This document shows, in pieces, positions 35,424 through 45,689 of a DNA stretch of 64,000 nt. The notes beneath the pieces were generated by a model, which was not told the DNA's origin, made no database searches, and worked only from the letters and a program-made list of their open reading frames with translations. Within the stretch, counting starts at the first letter, position 1, and each line of letters begins with the position of its first letter. Origin of the DNA: an uncultured bacterium (GTDB taxonomy: Bacteria; Bacteroidota; Bacteroidia; Chitinophagales; Chitinophagaceae). The position numbers and the translations under genes were made by a program. The stretch spans positions 8,027 to 72,026 of the forward strand of contig CAIKEH010000054.1 in the NCBI GenBank assembly GCA_903826405.1. The letters run 5' to 3'.

Positions 35424-36419
35424 TCATATGGAGAGCAACAAACTGCATCCCCGGATATCGCTGTTATCCAATCTGCCCAGCACTTCAAAAGAACCATCTT
35501 CATGCATTCGACCAAGATCATCGGTCGCAATAAAAGCACAGGAATGTCGGTTGGCCAGATCGATGATATTGATCACCCCTTCTTTCAATGGCTGACCCTG
35601 CGAGTCGGTAAAAGAGAAGGGATCATCCTCTGCCCTCAATATCACTTTCATCCAAGGGGGGCAATGAAATAAACCTCCCCCTTTTGAATAAGCTTGGGAA
35701 AGCAATTCGGTCATGCCATATTCAGAATGTATTTGACCAACCCCTAACTGTTCGATCAACTGACCATGCAACTGGTTCCTAGTAAGTTCCTCCCTCCTTC
35801 CTTTCATACCTCCGGTCTCCATAATAGTGGTGTAATTCAACTTCATGGGGAACAATTCTGCAAAATCAAGCAAGGCGAAGCCCACTCCGATCAATAATGT
35901 CTTCTGACTCAGTGCTTCCATACGGAGTAATTGGGCATGCAATTCGGGATATTGGTATAAAAGGAAACCACTTTCCCGGTGTCCGGAAAGTCGTATCAGT
36001 TCATCGACCATGAATACCAGGGACGAATTTCCTCTTTCGAGATACGAGGGAAGCAGCCCGATAATGCACCATTCAGAGGGGTTGCCATAAAAATTCCGGA
36101 AACAACGGGTGAAACTTTCCCGATAAAGCTCTAGGCTACGTACCGCATGACGGCTGGTCACGGCCCCTGTGGTACCACTGCTTTCAAAAACAGCCTCGGG
36201 TTCAAAGACACCTGTGACTACGAAATGAGACTTGAATAAGGAAACGGGCAGAAATGGAATGTCTGCGATTCTTTTCACTTTTCGGGATAAAGCGGGTAGA
36301 TTGTCCACGAAGTTCCTGTAAACCGGGTTTCCCCGATACTGCAGGCTGAAGGTTTCCAGAACCTTGACCTCGAATCCTGAGGCATGATTTTCGAATATGG
36401 TTTTCGCTGTTTCCTCCAT
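35424..36419 (-). CDS. LuxE-like acyl-protein synthetase / acyl transferase; start moved from 36557 to MEETAK
   Basis: FESSGTTG, SSLVFM, METGGMKG, SEYGMTELLSQ, TDDLG, VLGR; adenylate-forming. Confidence 0.75.
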   Translation of the reverse strand: MEETAKTIFENHASGFEVKVLETFSLQYRGNPVYRNFVDNLPALSRKVKRIADIPFLPVSLFKSHFVVTGVFEPEAVFESSGTTGAVTSRHAVRSLELYRESFTRCFRNFYGNPSEWCIIGLLPSYLERGNSSLVFMVDELIRLSGHRESGFLLYQYPELHAQLLRMEALSQKTLLIGVGFALLDFAELFPMKLNYTTIMETGGMKGRREELTRNQLHGQLIEQLGVGQIHSEYGMTELLSQAYSKGGGLFHCPPWMKVILRAEDDPFSFTDSQGQPLKEGVINIIDLANRHSCAFIATDDLGRMHEDGSFEVLGRLDNSDIRGCSLLLSI

Positions 36420-36473
36420 TGAAAATAGGTTATTCAGGCAGGAACGGTTAAATTCGTGTAAGCAAATCCCCTC

Positions 36474-36926
36474 ATGTTGAAAAGGATCCCTTCCATAATC
36501 GTTGTGCTGATCCTGTCGGTCATCATTGCCTTTTCCTGCAGCAAAGATACTTTTCAAAGTAAACCACAGCTATTTTTAAAAGGAGTGAATACGACGGTGG
36601 TCCCTGCCAACGGATACTTGCAGATCACCATGAGGCTTACCGATAAAGAAGGTGACTTCTACGATACGATCTGGGTCCAGAAAAAAACCACCCGTTGCCC
36701 ACAGAGCAATTTCGCCGACTCCCTTAAATACCGATTCCCTACCGATGCTCCAAGAAACCTGAATTTCGATGGCGAGGTCGTTTTGACCTTGGACTACAAT
36801 CTCGATGGATTGCAGCCAGCCTGCATCAAGCCGGATACCGCAGTATTCAGTTTTTGGATGAAGGATGCGAAGGGCAACCTCAGTGATACTGTGAGAACGC
36901 CATCTATCATCATCCTGAAACCCTGA
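36474..36926 (+). CDS. Hypothetical lipoprotein
   Basis: Signal ending AFSC; LTDKEGD motif; open 150 codons. Confidence 0.65.
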   Translation: MLKRIPSIIVVLILSVIIAFSCSKDTFQSKPQLFLKGVNTTVVPANGYLQITMRLTDKEGDFYDTIWVQKKTTRCPQSNFADSLKYRFPTDAPRNLNFDGEVVLTLDYNLDGLQPACIKPDTAVFSFWMKDAKGNLSDTVRTPSIIILKP

Positions 36927-37771
36927 TGCTCCGGTTGTGTCGTCACCTTCTTCATTTTTTCATTTATCCGAACTTGCTCTTGGTTCTTTGTTCCTTGCTT
37001 ATGGGCAAGCAGACCATCGATTTGTTCCACCTCAAAGGGGTAAATCCTGCTTTACTCCCATTCATCGCATCTGCAACCCTATGCAGTTATAGCCTGCATT
37101 GGTATCTTACCCCTTCACACCTTTCTTCCTCTCCAAGGATCGCCTGGAACAGCACCCATAAGAACCAGTTGCAATTGCTTTTCTTTGTTGGCATCTTCGG
37201 ATCATTCCTGTTTTTCATCCCACTGAAAGATCATTTTCTCGCCATCGGTATAGCAGTTGTTATCGCATTCCTGTATACCGCACCCAAGATCCCCGCATCG
37301 GGCAATCCACTTCATGGGAAGACAATGGTAGGCAAGACTTTCCTGCTCGCATCCACCTGGATGTATGTGACCACCTTATTGCCCATGCTCGTGAGTGAAC
37401 AAACCATTACACCACCTGCTGCCTGGTTCTGCGGATCCAGATTCTGCCTTATTTATTCCATTTGCATACTTTTCGATTTCAAAGATCAGGAAGACGATCG
37501 TCGTCAGGGTATCCAAAGTCTGCCCACCCTCTTCAATGAAGAGCAAGTTCGATCGCTTTATTACCTGTCGCTGGTTGCTTTTACCCTTTGCACAGTGGCT
37601 TTCGGCATGCCATTGGGATTGCGGACCTTTTCAGTCTTATTACTTCCTGGTTGCATCGCTGCCGCCATATACCCCCATGCAATAAGAAGTCGTTCGGATC
37701 TCACCTATTATGTGTTCCTGGACGGCTTGATGGCGCTTTCATCGGCGATCACCCTAATCCTGCCATTTTGA
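36926..37771 (+). CDS. UbiA prenyltransferase-like membrane protein
   Basis: Multiple TM segments; FLYT.P; Asp-rich FDFKDQEDDRRQGIQSLP. Confidence 0.7.
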   Translation: MLRLCRHLLHFFIYPNLLLVLCSLLMGKQTIDLFHLKGVNPALLPFIASATLCSYSLHWYLTPSHLSSSPRIAWNSTHKNQLQLLFFVGIFGSFLFFIPLKDHFLAIGIAVVIAFLYTAPKIPASGNPLHGKTMVGKTFLLASTWMYVTTLLPMLVSEQTITPPAAWFCGSRFCLIYSICILFDFKDQEDDRRQGIQSLPTLFNEEQVRSLYYLSLVAFTLCTVAFGMPLGLRTFSVLLLPGCIAAAIYPHAIRSRSDLTYYVFLDGLMALSSAITLILPF

Positions 37772-37772
37772 G

Positions 37773-37780
37773 TATATTTG
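37773..37780 (+). promoter_or_regulatory. -7 promoter element for the M42 peptidase operon
   Basis: tatatttg 19 nt before the TTG start. Confidence 0.5.
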
Positions 37781-37799
37781 AGTACAAAATCAACACAAC

Positions 37800-38912
37800 T
37801 TGGCCAAAGCAAAAACATCCCGTAAAAAAAGCATAGTCACCGATGAGTCCCTTGCATTCCTGAAGAAGTACATCAATAATGCATCTCCGACGGGTTTTGA
37901 GTCAGGTGGACAGAAACTCTGGCTCAATTACATCAAACCCTTCGTGGACACCCATATCACAGACCCATATGGTTCTGCAGCCGGCATCATCAACGCTGAT
38001 TCACCATTCAAAGTAGTCATCGAAGCGCATGCAGATGAGATCAGTTGGTTCGTGAATTACATCACTCCGGATGGACTCATCTACTTGAAACGGAATGGAG
38101 GGGTGGACCATCAGGTTGCTCCGGGCAAAAGAGTGATCATTCATGGCCGCAAGGGCCCGGTAAAAGCAGTATTCGGCTGGCCAGCCATCCATACCCGTAT
38201 GGGCAATCCGGAAAGCAAGGAACCCTCACCTCGCGTGGACAACCTCTTCCTGGACTGCGGGGCAAGAAGCAAAAAAGAAGTGGAGGCAACAGGGATACAT
38301 ATAGGAGCAGTAGCCACATATGAGGATGGATTCGAAGAATTATCCTATGGATATTATATCGGACGTGCGATGGACAACCGTATCGGAGGTTTCATGATCG
38401 CAGAGGTGGCCAGGCTGCTGAAGGAGAACAAGAAAAAATTACCGTACGGACTTTATGTAGTCAATGCAGTACAGGAAGAGATAGGTCTTCGTGGGGCGGA
38501 AATGATGGCCAGAAGGATCAAACCGAACATCGCCATCATCACGGATGTTACCCACGACACGACCACGCCCATGGTCAACAAGATCATAGAAGGTGATGTT
38601 GCTTGTGGTAAAGGGCCATCCCTTGCCTACGGTCCTGCCGTACACAACAAACTCATCGACATCGTGGAGGCAACAGCAGCCAAACAAAAGATCCCCGTTC
38701 AGATGAGGACCGTAAGCCGCAGTACCGGTACGGATACAGATTCCTTTGCGTATGCTAACGACGGATGCCCCTCGGTACTCATATCGATTCCGCTCCGTTA
38801 CATGCACACTCCCGTCGAAATGCTTCATAAGGACGACATCGAGAATACCATTAAACTTATGTATGAAACCCTACTGACACTAAGCCCTAAAACAAACCTC
38901 AGTTATTTTTGA
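37800..38912 (+). CDS. M42 family aminopeptidase
   Basis: EAHADEI, AMDNRIG, QEEIGLRGA, TDV, RYMHTPVE. Confidence 0.9.
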   Translation: MAKAKTSRKKSIVTDESLAFLKKYINNASPTGFESGGQKLWLNYIKPFVDTHITDPYGSAAGIINADSPFKVVIEAHADEISWFVNYITPDGLIYLKRNGGVDHQVAPGKRVIIHGRKGPVKAVFGWPAIHTRMGNPESKEPSPRVDNLFLDCGARSKKEVEATGIHIGAVATYEDGFEELSYGYYIGRAMDNRIGGFMIAEVARLLKENKKKLPYGLYVVNAVQEEIGLRGAEMMARRIKPNIAIITDVTHDTTTPMVNKIIEGDVACGKGPSLAYGPAVHNKLIDIVEATAAKQKIPVQMRTVSRSTGTDTDSFAYANDGCPSVLISIPLRYMHTPVEMLHKDDIENTIKLMYETLLTLSPKTNLSYF

Positions 38913-39061
38913 TGCATCTCCATCTACTTTATGTCGATCCAGGTAGCGGAAGCTATCTCGTCCAGGTCATCATAGCCGGAGTGCTCGGTATTGCATTCTA
39001 TTTCAAATCCAGCTGGAACTATTTAAGATCACTGTTCCGCAGGAATAAAAAAGGAGAATGA
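38912..39061 (+). CDS. 49-aa single-TM microprotein with YVDPGSGS motif (not in ORF track)
   Basis: Hand translation MHLHLLYVDPGSGSYLVQVIIAGVLGIAFYFKSSWNYLRSLFRRNKKGE; start overlaps the upstream stop (TGATG); stop lies 6 nt before the next ATG. Confidence 0.75.
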   Translation: MHLHLLYVDPGSGSYLVQVIIAGVLGIAFYFKSSWNYLRSLFRRNKKGE

Positions 39062-39067
39062 TCATCC

Positions 39068-40426
39068 ATGGCCCCTGGCTCACCCCATCCAGCTTCCTAT
39101 CGTGATCCTGCAGGGCACATCTTTTTCAGAGATAAGGTAGCTTATCGACAGGTAAACGAAGTGTATAGAGCCCATTATGAAATGTTCATGACATCCGGAC
39201 TCTATGATGAACTGACAGGAATGCAAATGCTGATCACTCATGTGGAAACGGATCTCCCCGGAAGCAATGAACACGCTTGGGCCGTATTGAAGCCCGAACA
39301 ACTAGATTTTCTCTCCTACCCTTATGAGTGGGGGTTCTCCCAATTGAGAGATGCGGCAATTCTCACGCTCGACATACAGTCCACCGCCATGGAAAAAGGG
39401 ATGTCACTAAAAGATGCCACTCCCTTCAATATCGTCTTTCGCTCAAACAAACCCGTGTTCATTGATACGCTGTCCTTCGAGACATATGATCCGTCCAGCC
39501 CTTGGGTAGCCTATCATCAGTTCTGCACTTGTTTTCTCGCCCCCCTGCTTCTAGCCGCATACCGTTCTCCGGATCTGATCCGGATGCTCGCTACGCATCC
39601 CGAGGGTATACCTCTTCAACTTTGTTCGTCATTGCTTCCCTGGTCGTCCCGCTTCCGACCCCTGGCAGCACTTCATGTTCACATGCCCGGAGGTATGAAA
39701 CCCGGCAAACAGAATTCAAAGCAGGCATCTTCGTTCAGCAAGGAAAAACTGAACCATATCATAAGCCATCTCAAAGAAGGCATCCAGGGTCTTTCGCTTA
39801 GCAAAGGGTCGGTTTGGAGCAGCTATTATGAGGATACCATCTTGAGTGATTCCTACCTGAAGGATAAGGAAAGGTTGGTCTCCAGAATGCTGCAGGGCAT
39901 ATCCTTCGATCAAGCATTTGATGCCGGTTGTAATACCGGACAATTCAGTCTGGTCTTGGCTCGCATGGGGAAAAAGGTCATCTCCGCCGATTCGGATCCT
40001 GGATGCATAGATATTCTATACAACGGAACGAAAGGTAAAGGTCTGTGTATAGACTCGCTCTTACTTGACCTGATGAATCCCACCCCACCTACGGGATGGG
40101 GTAACGCAGAAAGACTTTCATTCTGGGACAGACTGAAAACCGATCTGATACTTGCCCTTGCACTCATTCATCATCTTTGCCTCGGCCAAAATCTCTCATT
40201 CGAAAAGATAGCAACTCTTTTCAGTCGTCATGCGGAATGGCTATTGATCGAGTTCATCCCCAAAACGGATCCACGCGCCCAACAAATTTTATCGAACAAG
40301 GAAGATATCTACTCAGGATATACGGAAGAGAATTTCCTGCATGCCTTCACCGAATATTTCGCATTGGTGGATCGGGCTACCGTGCACGACTCATCCCGTT
40401 CCCTTTTCTTGCTCAGAAGAAAATAA
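39068..40426 (+). CDS. NoeA-like protein: N-terminal kinase-like domain + C-terminal class I SAM methyltransferase
   Basis: SYRDPAG, SYPYEW, LKDATPFN (catalytic-loop-like), VFIDTLSF (DFG-like); DAGCNTG SAM motif I, ISADSD. Confidence 0.75.
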   Translation: MAPGSPHPASYRDPAGHIFFRDKVAYRQVNEVYRAHYEMFMTSGLYDELTGMQMLITHVETDLPGSNEHAWAVLKPEQLDFLSYPYEWGFSQLRDAAILTLDIQSTAMEKGMSLKDATPFNIVFRSNKPVFIDTLSFETYDPSSPWVAYHQFCTCFLAPLLLAAYRSPDLIRMLATHPEGIPLQLCSSLLPWSSRFRPLAALHVHMPGGMKPGKQNSKQASSFSKEKLNHIISHLKEGIQGLSLSKGSVWSSYYEDTILSDSYLKDKERLVSRMLQGISFDQAFDAGCNTGQFSLVLARMGKKVISADSDPGCIDILYNGTKGKGLCIDSLLLDLMNPTPPTGWGNAERLSFWDRLKTDLILALALIHHLCLGQNLSFEKIATLFSRHAEWLLIEFIPKTDPRAQQILSNKEDIYSGYTEENFLHAFTEYFALVDRATVHDSSRSLFLLRRK

Positions 40427-40438
40427 AAGAGGAAAATA

Positions 40439-41932
40439 TTGAGCATCCAACGCATCATCCCCTACTTCCTACTGATCGGACTGCCGGTTTTTTTCGTCGT
40501 CCATAATTGGAATCAACAGTTCGAATACATTGACCTGAAAGATATCCTGCCCTTACTGTTTGCCTATATAAGCTTCACGATAGTTGTTTTCGTTTTGCTC
40601 AAGTTACTGCTCAAGGACAACATCCGTACCTCGATAGCCACCACTGCCCTTGGCTCGACATTCTTTTTTTTCGGTGCACTTCAAGATTTTTTAAAGACGT
40701 TTCAATTCCTGAGTATTTTTTCTCATTACTCCGTCATGTTACCCTTGCTGACAGGAGTAGTTTGGTTTATGTTTTTTCGCCTGCGCAAAAAACAAGACGG
40801 CGCCGCCAGAATGATCCGATTTCTGGCTTTGCTATTTGCCGTGCTACTCTTCTTGGAAATACTCCGATTGACCTTCACATTAGTTTCTCAGCAAAAGATC
40901 GAAGTGGATAAACATTCATCCCAAAAACCAACTTCAAGCACTTCTACTTTTCCAGATATTTACTATATCGTCACGGACGAATATTCCAGCACTCCGGCAC
41001 TCAGGGAAAGATTCGGTTATGACAATAGCCATATGGACAGTAGTCTTTCATCGCTTGGACTACAGGTCATGGGGGGATCACGCAGCAACTACAATTTCAC
41101 TCCATTTTCGATCGCCTCAACGCTCAATATGGATTACCTCCATTGGCTCAAAGATAGCATCGTCAAATCACCAGAAGATTACAACCATTGCATGCTCGAT
41201 ATCCGTGAGAATAAAGTATGTGAGATACTGACAACCCATGGTTATGAAATCCGTAATTTTTCCATTTTCGACCTTAAAGGTTCCCCTACACCAGAAAACG
41301 AATCATTCCTTCCTTTAAAAACAAAGCTCATTACGGGCCAGACTTTATGGGAACGGGTCAAAAAGGACCTCGGCCATCTCTTGTTGGCCGGGCCATTTGA
41401 GATAAGCTGGCTTTCTAATGATCTGATTTACGCGGCGGGAAAAACCACGGATACCCTACTGGCCCGAACGATTCGGGAGACCCAGATCCAATCGGCATCC
41501 CCCAGATTCGTTTACACACATCTCTACCTTCCCCATCCCCCTTTCTATGTGGATCGGAACGGCCACAGAAAAGACCTGAGCACCTTGCTAAGGGAAAAAG
41601 CAACAGATCCTGCTTCTGCATACTTGGATTATCTGCCCTACGCGAATAATAGGATACTGGAATTGATCAGCGCCATAAGATCACCAAAACTTCGTCCCTC
41701 CGTGATCATCTTACTTTCAGACCATGGATTCCGCGGTCATGGACAAAATGGGAAATATGATTTCATGAATTATTCGGCCATGGGATGGCCAGACAGCGCT
41801 CATATCCACTTCAAGGATTCCATGACCAATGTCAATGTTTTTCCTCGATTGCTGAATGACTTGTTCGATGAAGGGATACCCCTGCATATGGACAGCCTCA
41901 TCAGATTGCAGGATGCGTCAACCGGCAATTAG
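40439..41932 (+). CDS. Membrane protein with alkaline-phosphatase/sulfatase-superfamily domain (LtaS/EptA-like transferase)
   Basis: About 5 N-terminal TMs; PDIYYIVTDEY, SNYNFTPFS (putative Thr nucleophile), HLYLPHPPF, LSDHG; TTG start. Confidence 0.7.
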   Translation: MSIQRIIPYFLLIGLPVFFVVHNWNQQFEYIDLKDILPLLFAYISFTIVVFVLLKLLLKDNIRTSIATTALGSTFFFFGALQDFLKTFQFLSIFSHYSVMLPLLTGVVWFMFFRLRKKQDGAARMIRFLALLFAVLLFLEILRLTFTLVSQQKIEVDKHSSQKPTSSTSTFPDIYYIVTDEYSSTPALRERFGYDNSHMDSSLSSLGLQVMGGSRSNYNFTPFSIASTLNMDYLHWLKDSIVKSPEDYNHCMLDIRENKVCEILTTHGYEIRNFSIFDLKGSPTPENESFLPLKTKLITGQTLWERVKKDLGHLLLAGPFEISWLSNDLIYAAGKTTDTLLARTIRETQIQSASPRFVYTHLYLPHPPFYVDRNGHRKDLSTLLREKATDPASAYLDYLPYANNRILELISAIRSPKLRPSVIILLSDHGFRGHGQNGKYDFMNYSAMGWPDSAHIHFKDSMTNVNVFPRLLNDLFDEGIPLHMDSLIRLQDASTGN

Positions 41933-41937
41933 AAAAA

Positions 41938-43005
41938 TTAGTTCTTCCGTTTCGCATTCAGGTCCAGGCTGATTCCTAGTTGATTCATCGCGAATTGTCG
42001 CTGATATGGCGCCCTCGCAAATCGTAACTGAAATCGATCCAATAACACTCCAATACCATAGGAAAAACCGGTCGATCCATTTGCCGTATTCCCGATCGAA
42101 AGTTCCTGCTTACGCAAGACATTATAGGCCAACGTGAGCTCCACCCTGCCTGCAACGTAGCCTTGCACGGCAAAAATGAAATGGCGGAAAAGCTTCCCGG
42201 TGAAAGTGCTTTTACCAGCGTTACCATAATTATCAACATTGAAAAGGGTATCCCTGTACTGGATGTCGAACTGATGCAATCGCTGAGCAGTGATGGAGAA
42301 TTGTACGGGCAGCATCTTCAATCTCTTGGTGATACCCAGTTGCAGGTCGAATGGCATATCCTCACCCTGACCGGCATAGGTATGCAACTGCGCCCCCATA
42401 TTTTTGGCGACGAAGCCTAACTGTAAGAGGCTGGCGGAATCAAAGTAGTTGATGCCCACATCCATTGCAATGGCCGAAGATCTGTACATGCCATATAGGC
42501 TGGAAATATATTTTACCGAAACCCCGTAATGCCAATGCTCCAAATATTTTCTGGAAGCGGTCAATTGAATCACCATATCGCGGGGGCTGAATTCACCCAG
42601 GATATTACCGGAAGCATCGGTTTGCATCGCTTGTCCATAGGAGATATAATGAGTCCCCAAAGAAAAATTCGTACCCCAAGGTTCGTATCGCCAGCCTGCA
42701 AGAGCATGCAGATCCTTGAAGCCATCCTGGAACATTCCAAACGAGGCCGTCATCCGACCACTCATCTCCTTCCGAAGCAAGGACGGATTCTGGAAAGAAG
42801 GTCCTATATCTGAGCTGATGGCCGAAACATGGACACCACCCAACGCAGTAAGTTGAGGGCAGTTGGGTAGTTTGACGAACTGGAAAGCGGATTGACCACC
42901 CAACGTTTGAGATACCACCGGGGAATTAGGTAAAAGAGTTGAACAAAACAGCACCAGAATTAGGCTACGCATGGGATACGAATGTACGGATTCAATGCCG
43001 CCCAT
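41938..43005 (-). CDS. porQ: Type IX secretion system protein PorQ-like outer-membrane barrel
   Basis: AFQFVKLP..PQLTALGG, NPSLL, AMDVG, PFDLQLG; beta-barrel pattern. Confidence 0.7.
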   Translation of the reverse strand: MGGIESVHSYPMRSLILVLFCSTLLPNSPVVSQTLGGQSAFQFVKLPNCPQLTALGGVHVSAISSDIGPSFQNPSLLRKEMSGRMTASFGMFQDGFKDLHALAGWRYEPWGTNFSLGTHYISYGQAMQTDASGNILGEFSPRDMVIQLTASRKYLEHWHYGVSVKYISSLYGMYRSSAIAMDVGINYFDSASLLQLGFVAKNMGAQLHTYAGQGEDMPFDLQLGITKRLKMLPVQFSITAQRLHQFDIQYRDTLFNVDNYGNAGKSTFTGKLFRHFIFAVQGYVAGRVELTLAYNVLRKQELSIGNTANGSTGFSYGIGVLLDRFQLRFARAPYQRQFAMNQLGISLDLNAKRKN

Positions 43006-43141: not shown

Positions 43142-45544
43142 TCAAACGAGTGCTAGGTCCAGAACCTGTTGCATCGTTTTTACGTAATGGAATTTCATCC
43201 CTTTGATGTACTGGCCGTTGATCTCCTCTACATCTTTTTCATTCTGCCAACACATGATGATCTCTTTCAAGCCTGCGCGTTTGGCCGCAAGCACTTTCTC
43301 CTTGATGCCACCTACTGGCAATACCTGACCACGCAGCGTTATTTCTCCGGTCATCGCCAGATAGGGTTTTACCTTCCGGCCCGTGAATGCAGAGGCCAAT
43401 GAAGTCATCATGGTAATACCAGCGCTGGGACCATCCTTTGGAACCGCACCTTCGGGAACATGTACATGTATGCTTTTCTTATTGAATTCTGCGGGATCTA
43501 TACCAGACTTCCGCGCATTGGCCTGCAAATAGGTCAATGCCGTAGTGGCACTTTCCTTCATGACATTGCCCAGGTTTCCGGTCAGTTTGAGATCACCCTT
43601 CCCCTCACTTAGACTCGTCTCGATGAAAAGAATGTCACCACCCACATATGTCCAGGCCAGACCTACCGCAACACCTGCAATGTTCGCGGTTTTGTAGAGC
43701 TCGTTGCTGTATTTTGGCTTGCCCAGGATCCGCCCGACATCCTTCATGGTCAGTGTAGGCTTGAGTTTACCCTTCATGGCGAGATCCTTGGCCATGGAAC
43801 GCATGATAGAAGCGAGTTGCCTGTCGAGTTCTCTTACCCCGCTTTCGCGGGTGTAGTTCTCGATGATCCCCCGCATCACATTGTTGCTGACGCGAATACT
43901 GTGATTCTTCAGACCATGCATCTCTTTCTGCTTGGGAAGCAAGTGTCGTTTAGCGATCTCCTCCTTTTCTTCAACTGCATAACCACTGAGTTCGATCACC
44001 TCAAGACGGTCCCGCAGAGCAGGCTGGATACTTTGGATATCGTTGGCCGTGGCAATGAAAAGCACTTTGCTGAGGTCGTATTCCAGTTCCAGATAATTAT
44101 CGTAGAAAGTATGATTCTGTTCCGGATCGAGCACCTCTAAAAGTGCAGAGGAAGGATCTCCTCGATGATCTTTACCCACCTTGTCGATCTCGTCGAGTAT
44201 CATCACCGGGTTTGAACTTTGGACCTTTCTGATCTGCTGAATGATGCGCCCTGGCATGGCACCTATATACGTTTTTCTATGACCACGAATCTCACTCTCG
44301 TCATGCAGTCCACCCAAGCTGAGTCTGGTGTATTTACGGCCGATGGCATGCGAGATGCTTCTTCCCAATGAGGTCTTACCGATACCGGGAGGGCCGACGA
44401 AACAAAGAATAGGACTTTTCATATCTCCCTTTAACTTGAGCACAGCGAGATACTCCAGGATGCGTTGCTTGATCTTGTGCATGCCAAAATGATCTTGGTC
44501 GAGGATCCTTTTCGCTCTTTTGAGATCATAAACATCCTCCGTATAATCTTCCCAGGGAAGATCCAGCATGAGGTCGATATGATTATAGACGATGGAGTAA
44601 TCCGGTGTAGAGGAATGCATGCGCTCCAACTTCTCGATCTCCTTTCGAAAGAGATTCTGCGCCGTCTGGGGCCAGATTTTGGCATCGCCTTTCTTTTTCA
44701 TCTCAGCGATCTCCCGGTCGTTGCTATCTCCACCCAGCTCTTCCTTGATGCTCTTCAGTTGTTGTTGCAGGAAATAATCGCGCTGCTGTTTGTCCAGTTC
44801 GCTCTTGGTCTTATTGGTGACCTTATTCTTCAATTCGGCGAACTGGAATTCTTTTTGCAGAAGATGAAGCAGCATTTCCGCACGTTTGCGGATGTCGTTC
44901 ATCTCGAGCAACTGCTGCTTATCGGAAAGTTCGCTGTTGAGGTTGCTACTCACGAAATGGATGAGGAAGGAAGGATTCTCGATGTTCTTGAGGATGATGG
45001 TCGCCTCTGCGGGAATGTTAGGCGATAATTGGATGATCTGTGCGGCAAGGTCCTTTATGGAACTCACTGTCGCCCGGAAAGGCTCATCATCTTTGCCTTC
45101 TTCTTCTTCAAGAATATCTACGCGGGCCTTGAAATAAGGTTCTTCTGAAGTGACCTGCCGAATGGCGAAACGCTTGCGTCCCTGAATGATCACCGTAGTG
45201 CCACCATCGGGCATTTTGATCAGCTTGATGATGCGTGCCACTGTGCCGATGTTAACCAGATCCGACATGGTGGGATCCTCGACGCTGCTGTCTTTTTGAG
45301 CAAGCACACCAACGATCTTGTCGGCACGATATGCATCGTTTACCGCTTTGATGGATTTATCCCTTCCCACGGTGATCGGTATGACCACTCCGGGGAAAAG
45401 TACGGTATTTCGCAAAGGAAGGATGGCTATCTCTTCGGGAATCGGTTTTTCATCGATACCATCATTTTCGCTTTCGTTCAGCGGAATGATAGGCATGAAA
45501 TCGAGATCCTCGTCGGTTTCAAACAGAATTGGGTTTTTTTCCAT
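43142..45544 (-). CDS. lon: Lon protease; start moved to MEKNPIL
   Basis: LPLRNTVLFPG, Walker A GPPGIGKTS, DEIDK, PKDGPSAG catalytic Ser, GGIKEK. Confidence 0.97.
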   Translation of the reverse strand: MEKNPILFETDEDLDFMPIIPLNESENDGIDEKPIPEEIAILPLRNTVLFPGVVIPITVGRDKSIKAVNDAYRADKIVGVLAQKDSSVEDPTMSDLVNIGTVARIIKLIKMPDGGTTVIIQGRKRFAIRQVTSEEPYFKARVDILEEEEGKDDEPFRATVSSIKDLAAQIIQLSPNIPAEATIILKNIENPSFLIHFVSSNLNSELSDKQQLLEMNDIRKRAEMLLHLLQKEFQFAELKNKVTNKTKSELDKQQRDYFLQQQLKSIKEELGGDSNDREIAEMKKKGDAKIWPQTAQNLFRKEIEKLERMHSSTPDYSIVYNHIDLMLDLPWEDYTEDVYDLKRAKRILDQDHFGMHKIKQRILEYLAVLKLKGDMKSPILCFVGPPGIGKTSLGRSISHAIGRKYTRLSLGGLHDESEIRGHRKTYIGAMPGRIIQQIRKVQSSNPVMILDEIDKVGKDHRGDPSSALLEVLDPEQNHTFYDNYLELEYDLSKVLFIATANDIQSIQPALRDRLEVIELSGYAVEEKEEIAKRHLLPKQKEMHGLKNHSIRVSNNVMRGIIENYTRESGVRELDRQLASIMRSMAKDLAMKGKLKPTLTMKDVGRILGKPKYSNELYKTANIAGVAVGLAWTYVGGDILFIETSLSEGKGDLKLTGNLGNVMKESATTALTYLQANARKSGIDPAEFNKKSIHVHVPEGAVPKDGPSAGITMMTSLASAFTGRKVKPYLAMTGEITLRGQVLPVGGIKEKVLAAKRAGLKEIIMCWQNEKDVEEINGQYIKGMKFHYVKTMQQVLDLALV

Positions 45545-45689
45545 GATCACTCTTTTAACGCCAACCTGGCACGATACCATATATTGGATCGTAAAAAATC
45601 AGCAAAGTTCTCTGTTTCCAATATGGTGCCAACATGAAAAATCCGGACATTTTGGCCCGGATGGACAATATTCCAATATTGGAGCAAGA

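Follow-up and report, generated by a model that had tools for sequence, protein, structure and literature searches.

What do three genes that are packed almost end to end, and that encode a microprotein, a kinase-methyltransferase fusion and a membrane protein, do together? This is the question raised by positions 38,912 to 41,932 of a 64,000-nucleotide (nt) stretch of DNA from an uncultured Chitinophagaceae bacterium (contig CAIKEH010000054.1), which we call the window. All three genes lie on the plus strand. The microprotein gene (38912..39061; 49 amino acids (aa) from its ATG) is followed after 6 nt by the gene of a 452-aa NoeA-like fusion protein (39068..40426), and this one after 12 nt by the gene of a 497-aa NoeB-like membrane protein (40439-41932). 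An earlier reading of the letters alone (the sequence-only reading) had given the same three open reading frames (ORFs) and the same gaps, and had taken the trio for a system that makes a phosphorylated and methylated unit in the cytoplasm and transfers it to a surface acceptor. Based on our analysis the trio is very probably the NoeA/NoeB cassette, in a Chitinophagaceae-type copy, and we lean on balance towards reading it as a horizontally mobile, three-part envelope phospho-modification system of the NoeA/NoeB type.

A tblastn search of plasmids with the fusion protein leads to pSymA records of Sinorhizobium meliloti that bear the annotation 'noeA: nodulation protein NoeA'; the match covers residues 1-451 (29.9% identity, E 3e-48). 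The label NoeA-like, already given by the sequence-only reading, thus extends to homology over the full length. More than 7,660 homologs were found (90% clustering). The N-terminal part of the protein (residues ~1-215; 39068..39712) is predicted to be an atypical protein-kinase-like domain, as indicated by invariant columns, AlphaFold2 (AF2) and Foldseek, and its C-terminal part (~277-452; 39896..40423) a class I S-adenosylmethionine (SAM)-dependent methyltransferase domain, which also has weak, sub-threshold matches to Pfam Methyltransf_25/11/23 at residues ~280-370. The AF2 model of the full-length protein, made from 67 sequences, has a predicted local distance difference test (pLDDT) score of 93.2 and a predicted TM-score (pTM) of 0.92. 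In the Foldseek search of the PDB with this model class I methyltransferases dominate, with WbdD (4ax8, 4azs) at ranks 2-4, NodS close behind and the WbdD methyltransferase domain among the best structural matches, as suits the methyltransferase half proposed before. Because the methyltransferase domain swamped this search, the N-terminal domain (residues 1-240) was modelled and searched separately. A kinase fold at this end had been set as a test of the proposal; the model reaches a pLDDT of 93.7, and all of the best 50 PDB matches listed have the protein-kinase fold (E from 4e-5, TM-score over the query (TMq) 0.32-0.46), CK2alpha, PknG, DYRK2, Src and RNase L among them.

In the same 67 sequences the kinase-like domain has invariant R27, K115-D116...N121 (LKDATPFN) and D133 (FIDT), which we assign as the putative equivalent of K72, the D...N catalytic loop and the Mg-binding Asp, respectively. 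In the methyltransferase domain motif I (D285-x-G287-x-N289-x-G291) and the acidic D308 after it are invariant; a second acidic residue, D310, stands close by. These residues are consistent with an active kinase and an active SAM binder. Neither a signal peptide nor a transmembrane (TM) segment was seen in the sequence or the model of the fusion protein, which is therefore predicted to be cytoplasmic.

That the best structural matches of the N-terminal domain are protein kinases would also suit a regulatory or signalling module, in which NoeA, as a protein kinase and methylase, controls NoeB, or is itself controlled across the membrane, by way of the microprotein. Such a module would have precedents in BcsE-BcsF-BcsG and in the small-protein regulators PmrR and MgrB, and bcsEFG likewise combines a protein of the cytosol and a microprotein with one membrane pass with a transferase of the alkaline-phosphatase fold. 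The conserved basic tail of the microprotein could dock NoeA. We consider this explanation quite improbable, as none of the Ser, Thr or Tyr residues in the tail is conserved and as the one lineage that has exchanged NoeA, described below, replaces it with biosynthetic enzymes and not with regulators. Moreover, a class I methyltransferase is fused in 94% of the members of the Lani_1194/NoeA family (PMC9758233), which fits a WbdD-like tandem chemistry on one substrate.

The gene of the NoeB-like protein begins with TTG, with AAGAGG ahead of the start. Strong hydropathy segments peak at residues 3-21, 36-54, 90-115 and 128-146, and a fifth, weaker one at ~64-82 was picked by eye. From hydropathy and loop charges an N-terminal membrane domain of ~5 TM helices (residues 1-148; 40439..40882) is predicted, with the N-terminus inside. 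Since the basic loop RLRKKQDGAAR precedes the last helix, residues 150-497 are predicted to lie outside, and with them the alkaline-phosphatase-superfamily catalytic domain (40931..41932), which is indicated by a Sulfatase match in Pfam (28.7 bits; cut-off 25), conserved columns and hhalign. The motifs TDEY (179-182), Thr221, LPHPP (364-368) and SDHG (427-430) are present, and the earlier description of a roughly five-TM protein with an outward domain bearing DEY, Thr, HPP and DHG holds as a prediction. In 58 NoeB-like homologs D180 (in TDEY), T221, H361, H366 and D428-H429-G430 are conserved; D180 is the putative metal ligand, T221 the putative nucleophile and D428-H429 the putative second ligand pair, and both H361 and H366 are invariant. 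D180 and T221 are 41 residues apart, a spacing like that of EptA (E240 to T280) and LtaS (E255 to T300).

The profile of the 497-aa family aligns with S. meliloti NoeB at 97.1% probability (hhalign, E 5.4e-11, 286 columns, 17% identity), with the blocks PDIYYIVTDE, T..S...LNMDY, H..PH.P and GDHG. The formylglycine-sulfatase motif C/S-x-P-x-R is not found at the nucleophile site, which reads NYNFTPFSIAS; P-F-S comes after Thr221, and position i+2 lacks the Pro and position i+4 the Arg of the motif. The protein is thus not a formylglycine sulfatase. A phmmer search of the PDB with the 497-aa protein gave no match and, the PDB sequence searches being uninformative, the assignment to the NoeB-like sub-family rests on the motifs and on the homology to NoeB. 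One NoeB-like homolog is named 'LTA synthase family protein' by NCBI.

The microprotein (MHLHLLYVDPGSGSYLVQVIIAGVLGIAFYFKSSWNYLRSLFRRNKKGE; an alternative TTG start lies at 38909) carries the family signature YVDPGSGS at residues 7-14 (38930..38953), followed by a TM helix (~15-31, with Gln18) and the basic tail KSSWNYLRSLFRRNKKGE (both within 38954..39058). By the positive-inside rule it is predicted to be bitopic, with the N-terminus outside, the motif on the outward side of the membrane and the tail inside. A profile built from 76 copies and searched among 1.84 billion representative proteins found 13,642 clusters (50% clustering) at E<=1e-3, of which 4,180 reach E<=1e-10. In public sources the family bears the label 'hypothetical protein', and the microprotein matches no Pfam or NCBIfam model (E<=1), those of sorting signals of the PEP-CTERM or LPXTG type, which have the same layout of motif, TM helix and basic tail, included; no sortase-like gene recurs among the cassette neighbours. 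Y7, D9 and Q18 are invariant, P10, G11, G13 and S14 are conserved in at least 90% of the copies, and the tail keeps the pattern F-K-x-x-W-x-x-[IV]-K-x-F-F. The Ser/Thr positions of the motif vary, as in DPGIGS, DPGIAS, DSGTGA and DPVTGS.

Members of the family are typically 52-129 aa long, and two of the 150 best representatives reach 161-175 aa; P0125 (161 aa) is a tandem double, with two units of signal peptide, Y-L-D-P, TM helix and basic tail in one ORF. Among these 150, most have the motif from about residue 20-32 onwards, just behind AHA (23), AYA (18), VFA, AFA, ALA, VYA or SHA. Taken with the preceding hydrophobic stretch, this AxA resembles the signal-peptidase I site of a Sec signal peptide and, as the site stands directly before Y[IL]DPG[ST]GS, the motif is predicted to face outward. 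The mature microprotein would have the Tyr as its first residue at the outer face, then the TM helix, and its K/R-rich tail would be inside. In the Bacteroidota form only 3-6 residues precede the Tyr.

Such a topology suggests that the microprotein could itself be the acceptor or carrier: NoeB would put a phospho-substituent on the outward Tyr, Ser or Thr, while NoeA makes the donor or modifies the tail. Precedents are PptA, which modifies pilin, and EptC, which modifies FlgG, with a phospho-substituent. The motif is predicted on the catalytic side of NoeB, exactly at the mature N-terminus after AxA, Tyr7 and Asp9 are invariant, the system is self-contained in organisms with very different envelopes, and the microprotein remains with NoeB when NoeA is lost; all of this would fit an acceptor. 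Yet no Ser/Thr of the motif is invariant, a single microprotein can face up to nine NoeB paralogs, a carrier used at 1:1 stoichiometry would be costly, and in the invariant TM Gln and the conserved amphipathic tail we would sooner see surfaces for interaction, so that we hold a role as acceptor or carrier to be improbable. The sequence-only reading had offered carrier, substrate or scaffold; the covalent-substrate part of this offer is weakened by the variable Ser/Thr.

Several other explanations for the short gene were considered and put aside. A RiPP-like reading (ribosomally synthesized and post-translationally modified peptide), in which the kinase modifies a precursor peptide, is unlikely given the stable TM helix, the basic tail and the outward motif. 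A microprotein-NoeA fusion (P0079, 518 aa; L094:412-1968, Logan contig ERR11523670_109462) was set aside as evidence, being probably an indel or sequencing error, since its junction has a run of T7 where its relative L001 has T6; on the same contig a PMT_2 (GT-C) gene lies between NoeA and the sulfatase-fold gene. A second apparent fusion, in L079, was ruled out, as translation puts the microprotein in a different frame. A programmed frameshift between microprotein and NoeA was dropped, as most loci have only overlaps of 0-13 nt or short gaps.

Are the three genes a unit elsewhere? We looked at 80 loci around homologs of the fusion protein, whose identity to the query is still 40-48% and which come from more than 10 phyla, with Chitinophagaceae, Chloroflexota, Acidobacteriota, Actinomycetota, Gemmatimonadota, Aminicenantes, Zixibacteria, Pseudomonadota, Firmicutes-type metagenome-assembled genomes and others represented. 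A small ORF with the strict motif [YF][ILV]DPG[ST]GS, a helix and a basic tail lies directly upstream of the fusion gene in ~63 loci; with a relaxed motif the microprotein is found in 72 loci (75 copies), and two further copies, divergent or interrupted, were seen by eye in L029 and L079. When the three loci that start at the fusion gene are left aside, the microprotein adjoins the fusion gene in 74 of the 77 with visible upstream DNA. Of the 80 loci, 62 contain a homolog of the 497-aa protein, whose gene in nearly every case comes next downstream and on the same strand, and six more have another sulfatase-fold membrane protein beside the fusion gene, which brings the total to ~68. The association is far more than chance, and the co-occurrence of the trio in other genomes, on which the sequence-only reading depended, holds across phyla.

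The order of the genes varies. In L060 it is NoeB-NoeA-microprotein, in L076 NoeB lies upstream, and in L028, L033, L063 and L070 a microprotein precedes extra NoeB paralogs. This variation argues against the small ORF being a mere leader or upstream ORF of the fusion gene. It also bears on the possibility that the synteny is due to chance or to lineage and reflects no functional link. In the Chitinophagaceae the cassette is indeed also syntenic with the unrelated M42, UbiA and LuxE-like genes, but none of this extra synteny is left beyond that family, whereas the trio is still found in Chloroflexota, Acidobacteriota, Actinomycetota, Gemmatimonadota, Pseudomonadota and other phyla; the order shifts but the set is kept (L060, L076, L033, L070), and the phyletic profile is all-or-none. 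Comparative genomics leads us to reject this explanation, to which we give next to no probability.

The phyletic profile was read from 301 sampled genomes of the phylum, 12 of which have the fusion gene. Both partners are present in all 12 (in two of them seen by inspecting divergent copies), and neither partner is found in 19 of 20 related genomes without NoeA. The three genes differ in copy number and in conservation. In the source genome the microprotein and the fusion protein are each encoded once and NoeB-like proteins twice. The Chloroflexota-type genome of L053 (G006) has one NoeA, one microprotein and nine NoeB-like paralogs, four of which form one tandem array; one region with paralogs is C115:22347-30005. 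Distal NoeB paralogs mostly have no microprotein of their own; an exception is the genome of L020, whose sole microprotein copy stands beside a second NoeB paralog. For the eight loci without an adjacent NoeB-like gene, copies were found elsewhere in the genome, intact in six genomes and fragmented in two. Mean identity is 45% for NoeA, 48% for the microprotein and 29% for the NoeB catalytic domain. A single-copy, conserved NoeA and microprotein together with a fast-evolving, multiplied NoeB fit one donor-making step and several acceptor-specific transferases. The distance matrices of the three proteins are correlated (Mantel r 0.44-0.52, p 0.001), which is weak support because shared phylogeny alone also gives such correlations. 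Outside the Chitinophagaceae the neighbours are enriched in glycan genes: GT2 (six distant lineages), NAD-epimerases, GT1/GT4, PMT_2, cytidylyltransferases and Capsule_synth.

The kinship with the rhizobial genes extends to the microprotein. The annotated S. meliloti region reads nodL, a 71-aa hypothetical protein, noeA and noeB. The 71-aa protein (MPIIMSVVGFLILSIVPAHAYLDPGTGSMLVQGLIGALAIGGAAVSGYWNKIRWAVRSFLGRENNGKNGGK) matches the microprotein profile at 98% probability (E 4e-15), and its ORF (L081:3784-3999; CP140958.1 302196-302411, pSymA) overlaps the start of noeA by 23 nt. The protein also has a TM helix and ends in a basic tail. By its predicted cleavage site (AHA|YLDPGTGS) it is assigned as the signal-peptide form of the microprotein and the fourth gene of the classical nodL-noeA-noeB operon. 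Polar-mutant phenotypes that were credited to noeA/noeB may therefore include this ORF. The nodL-noeA-noeB genes form the nod box n5 operon (Ardourel et al. 1995, as cited in PMC9758233).

In 2022 Krysinska et al. described a novel family of kinase-like proteins to which both NoeA and Lani_1194 of Legionella anisa belong and which has members in some archaea (PMC9758233). A small hypothetical neighbour, Lani_1193, was found there in 65% of 816 neighbourhoods, and an alkaline-phosphatase-fold neighbour, Lani_1195/NoeB, with an HHpred match to EptA, in 38%; these neighbours were taken as possible effectors (PMC9758233). The passages on Lani_1193-1195 in that paper contain no description of the motif, the topology or the family size of the microprotein (PMC9758233). 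The trio as a unit is thus already known, genetically since 1995 and bioinformatically since 2022, and the window cassette is an ordinary member of the NoeA/NoeB family. The claim of the sequence-only reading that the trio is undescribed does not stand, as nodL-noeA-noeB and Lani_1193/1194/1195 are published, while its remark that no biochemistry has been described does; the roles of noeA/noeB are stated in print to 'remain unknown'. What is new here is the definition of the microprotein family, its size and predicted topology and its presence in the S. meliloti nod operon, together with the phyletic pattern of all or none, the finding that a single NoeA goes with many NoeB paralogs and the phosphonate-module swap described below.

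For rhizobia and Legionella the 2022 paper suggests that a secreted, Nod-factor-like signal is decorated in the cytoplasm (PMC9758233). It is in keeping with this that noeA and noeB are nod-box-regulated host-range genes (PMC9758233). A natural truncation of noeA correlates with nodulation failure on some Medicago genotypes. However, in an S. meliloti nodL mutation that was polar on noeA/noeB the change in the Nod factor was limited to O-acetylation, this genome and most carriers belong to non-symbiotic soil and water bacteria of many phyla, and NoeB is predicted to have its catalytic domain outside and not in the cytoplasm. As a general explanation of the cassette we find it very improbable indeed.

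An observation on what NoeA may supply comes from a genome in which it has been exchanged. G070 belongs to the same genus as G150 and G266, both of which have the canonical cassette, and it retains the M42 gene, the microprotein and NoeB without NoeA. In the place of NoeA (L095; G070:C34:38500-45800) are four opposite-strand genes, for a fusion of CTP_transf_like and phosphoenolpyruvate (PEP) mutase domains (with EDKKGLKRNS, a diagnostic motif), a thiamine pyrophosphate (TPP)-dependent decarboxylase, an Fe-alcohol dehydrogenase (ADH) and a TagF-like Glyphos_transf enzyme. By domain content the mutase fusion is classed as Fom1-like and the decarboxylase as a putative phosphonopyruvate decarboxylase (Ppd). 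The same layout was found in L143 (7119-13980), L165 and L173, which came from a microprotein-centred metagenome scan; L143 and L165 additionally have a TylF-type O-methyltransferase gene. NoeB is intact beyond the phosphonate genes in G070, L143 and L165, and the contig of L173 ends sooner. The mutases of G070 and of the metagenome contigs are only 72% identical, which indicates that the swap is old and maintained. Fom1-type fusions make the cytidine monophosphate (CMP) ester CMP-hydroxyethylphosphonate (PMC6697681). A phosphonyl head-group module, sometimes a methylating one, can thus apparently take the place of the kinase-methyltransferase with no change in the presence of the microprotein and NoeB.

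Two further contigs have no NoeA in the stretch fetched. In L154 (3890-7089) the microprotein is followed by two tandem NoeB-like genes and then by a 550-aa ORF without a Pfam match and a biotin-synthase-like radical SAM gene; in L113, of only 2.3 kb, it is followed by one NoeB-like gene.

How, then, might the three proteins work together? In the envelope phospho-modification system that we favour, NoeA would use adenosine triphosphate (ATP) and SAM to equip a carrier in the membrane, at its inner leaflet, with a small phosphoryl head group that is probably capped by a methyl, a capped phosphodiester formed by WbdD-like chemistry. The intermediate would cross the membrane, and NoeB would transfer the head group, by way of phospho-Thr221, to an acceptor outside the cytoplasm, for which a glycan is the likeliest candidate. 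The replacement of NoeA by phosphonate genes lends this indirect support. The microprotein is kept with NoeB after the replacement of NoeA, its motif is predicted on the catalytic side of NoeB and its TM Gln is invariant; for these reasons we place it at the membrane or periplasmic step, where it may be a subunit that NoeB cannot do without or may handle the lipid-linked intermediate, and would be more than an anchor for NoeA. For the general logic, a head group made inside and transferred outside, we would put the chances a little short of even. That the exact chemistry is methyl phosphate, which is proposed by analogy, is doubtful.

A number of points weigh against this system as a whole. 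The model leaves the membrane crossing of the cytoplasmic product without explanation. The kinase-fold match of NoeA is moderate (TMq <=0.46) and silent on whether a lipid, a sugar or a protein is the substrate, and the NoeB family profile finds only weak soluble sulfatases among PDB sequences (E>=8e-5), with no EptA or LtaS. The window has no glycan-gene context, and the enrichment of GtrA among neighbours (7/142) comes from one Ferruginibacter-like lineage and so stands for one event and not for seven. The phosphonate swap is limited to one Chitinophagaceae lineage and is on the opposite strand, so that the phosphonate genes could be an unrelated insertion. As the polar nodL mutation altered Nod-factor O-acetylation only, it does not reveal the acceptor, and the literature searched holds no biochemistry for any member of the family.

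A broader possibility that fits the swap is that the microprotein and NoeB form a general outward head-group transferase platform which is fed by interchangeable cytoplasmic modules. NoeA would supply a methyl-phosphate-type lipid donor and Fom1/Ppd/ADH/TagF, with or without the O-methyltransferase, a hydroxyethylphosphonate-type donor, while the microprotein with its invariant Gln would aid lipid crossing or docking. We regard this as a tentative proposal, with a chance well below even. If it is true, the platform would be a previously unrecognized and very widespread class of envelope decoration, and would explain the 30-year-old host-range phenotype of noeA/noeB. These genes have been known to affect host range since 1995 without an assigned chemistry, and the NoeA/microprotein family is very large and spans Gram-negative and Gram-positive bacteria. 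Our analysis offers three handles for experiments: an overlooked third component, the microprotein; one NoeA that would serve many NoeB paralogs; and the exchange of NoeA for phosphonate genes. Should the envelope-modification model be true, it would add a type to the known modifications of the envelope and a role to those known for bacterial microproteins.

The microprotein ATG overlaps the TGA of an M42 peptidase gene (TGATG), identified at 254 bits in the Pfam/NCBIfam scan of window proteins. This gene closes a block (35424-38912) which also contains a LuxE-like acyl-protein synthetase gene on the minus strand, a 150-aa ORF that looks like a secreted protein or lipoprotein, and a UbiA-family prenyltransferase gene. 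Among the 80 loci LuxE-like homologs occur in 27, the 150-aa ORF in 25, UbiA in 24 and M42 in 33 (the window is included in these counts except in that of M42). The block is limited to Chitinophagaceae-type loci and lies upstream of the cassette wherever maps were drawn. Directly downstream, on the minus strand, is the gene of the type IX secretion protein PorQ (41938-43005; NCBIfam, 283 bits), which adjoins the cassette in 12 of 80 related loci, followed on the same strand by that of an 812-aa Lon-like protease (43142-45580), identified by reading its translation alone. PorQ, together with the best homologs, points to a Chitinophagaceae-like member of the Bacteroidota as the source. No RNA family was found in the window with Rfam, and the promoter and terminator scans gave background level only.

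It remains to compare the trio with known systems. The closest is that of S. meliloti, where all three proteins are homologous to those of the window and the gene order and tight spacing are the same. The window, unlike S. meliloti, is without nodL, a nod box and a symbiosis context; its microprotein lacks the signal peptide of the 71-aa protein and starts six residues before the Tyr, and the NoeB catalytic domains of the two are very divergent. Lani_1193-1195 share a kinase-like protein with a class I methyltransferase, a small neighbour and an alkaline-phosphatase-fold neighbour (PMC9758233), and their kinship to the window trio is inferred through NoeA.

WbdD is the O-antigen chain terminator of E. 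coli O9a, and it first phosphorylates and then methylates the phosphate. Like the fusion protein, it is a bifunctional kinase/SAM-methyltransferase of the cytoplasmic face, and its methyltransferase domain is matched (4ax8, E 1.2e-8). However, the order in WbdD is methyltransferase then kinase, whereas in the window it is kinase then methyltransferase, and WbdD has a C-terminal coiled coil and a membrane-binding helix, while the window model ends in the methyltransferase beta-sheet and has no coiled coil. The WbdD kinase domain is also not among the 50 best matches listed for the N-terminal domain. We know of no microprotein or alkaline-phosphatase-fold partner of WbdD.

EptA/MCR-1, LtaS, OpgB and BcsG resemble the NoeB-like protein in having five TM helices and an outward catalytic domain (here predicted), a Thr nucleophile (here putative) that follows the first acidic metal ligand by ~41 residues, and a pair of D-H ligands. 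In the PDB sequence searches the window protein did not match solved chains of EptA or LtaS directly. EptA, LtaS, OpgB and BcsG transfer lipid head groups; to our knowledge, no enzyme of the EptA/LtaS type requires a dedicated cytoplasmic kinase-methyltransferase. The layout is also that of bcsE-bcsF-bcsG of E. coli, for cellulose phosphoethanolamine, where one operon encodes a cytosolic protein, a microprotein that spans the membrane once and a membrane transferase of the alkaline-phosphatase fold. BcsE is a c-di-GMP sensor and not an enzyme pair, and we know of no reason to expect homology between the bcsEFG products and the window trio. Finally, phosphonyl-tailoring clusters of the Fom1 type (PMC6697681) are not present in this window, for which they are no more than a clue to function, and in G070, L143, L165 and L173 they occupy the exact place of NoeA.

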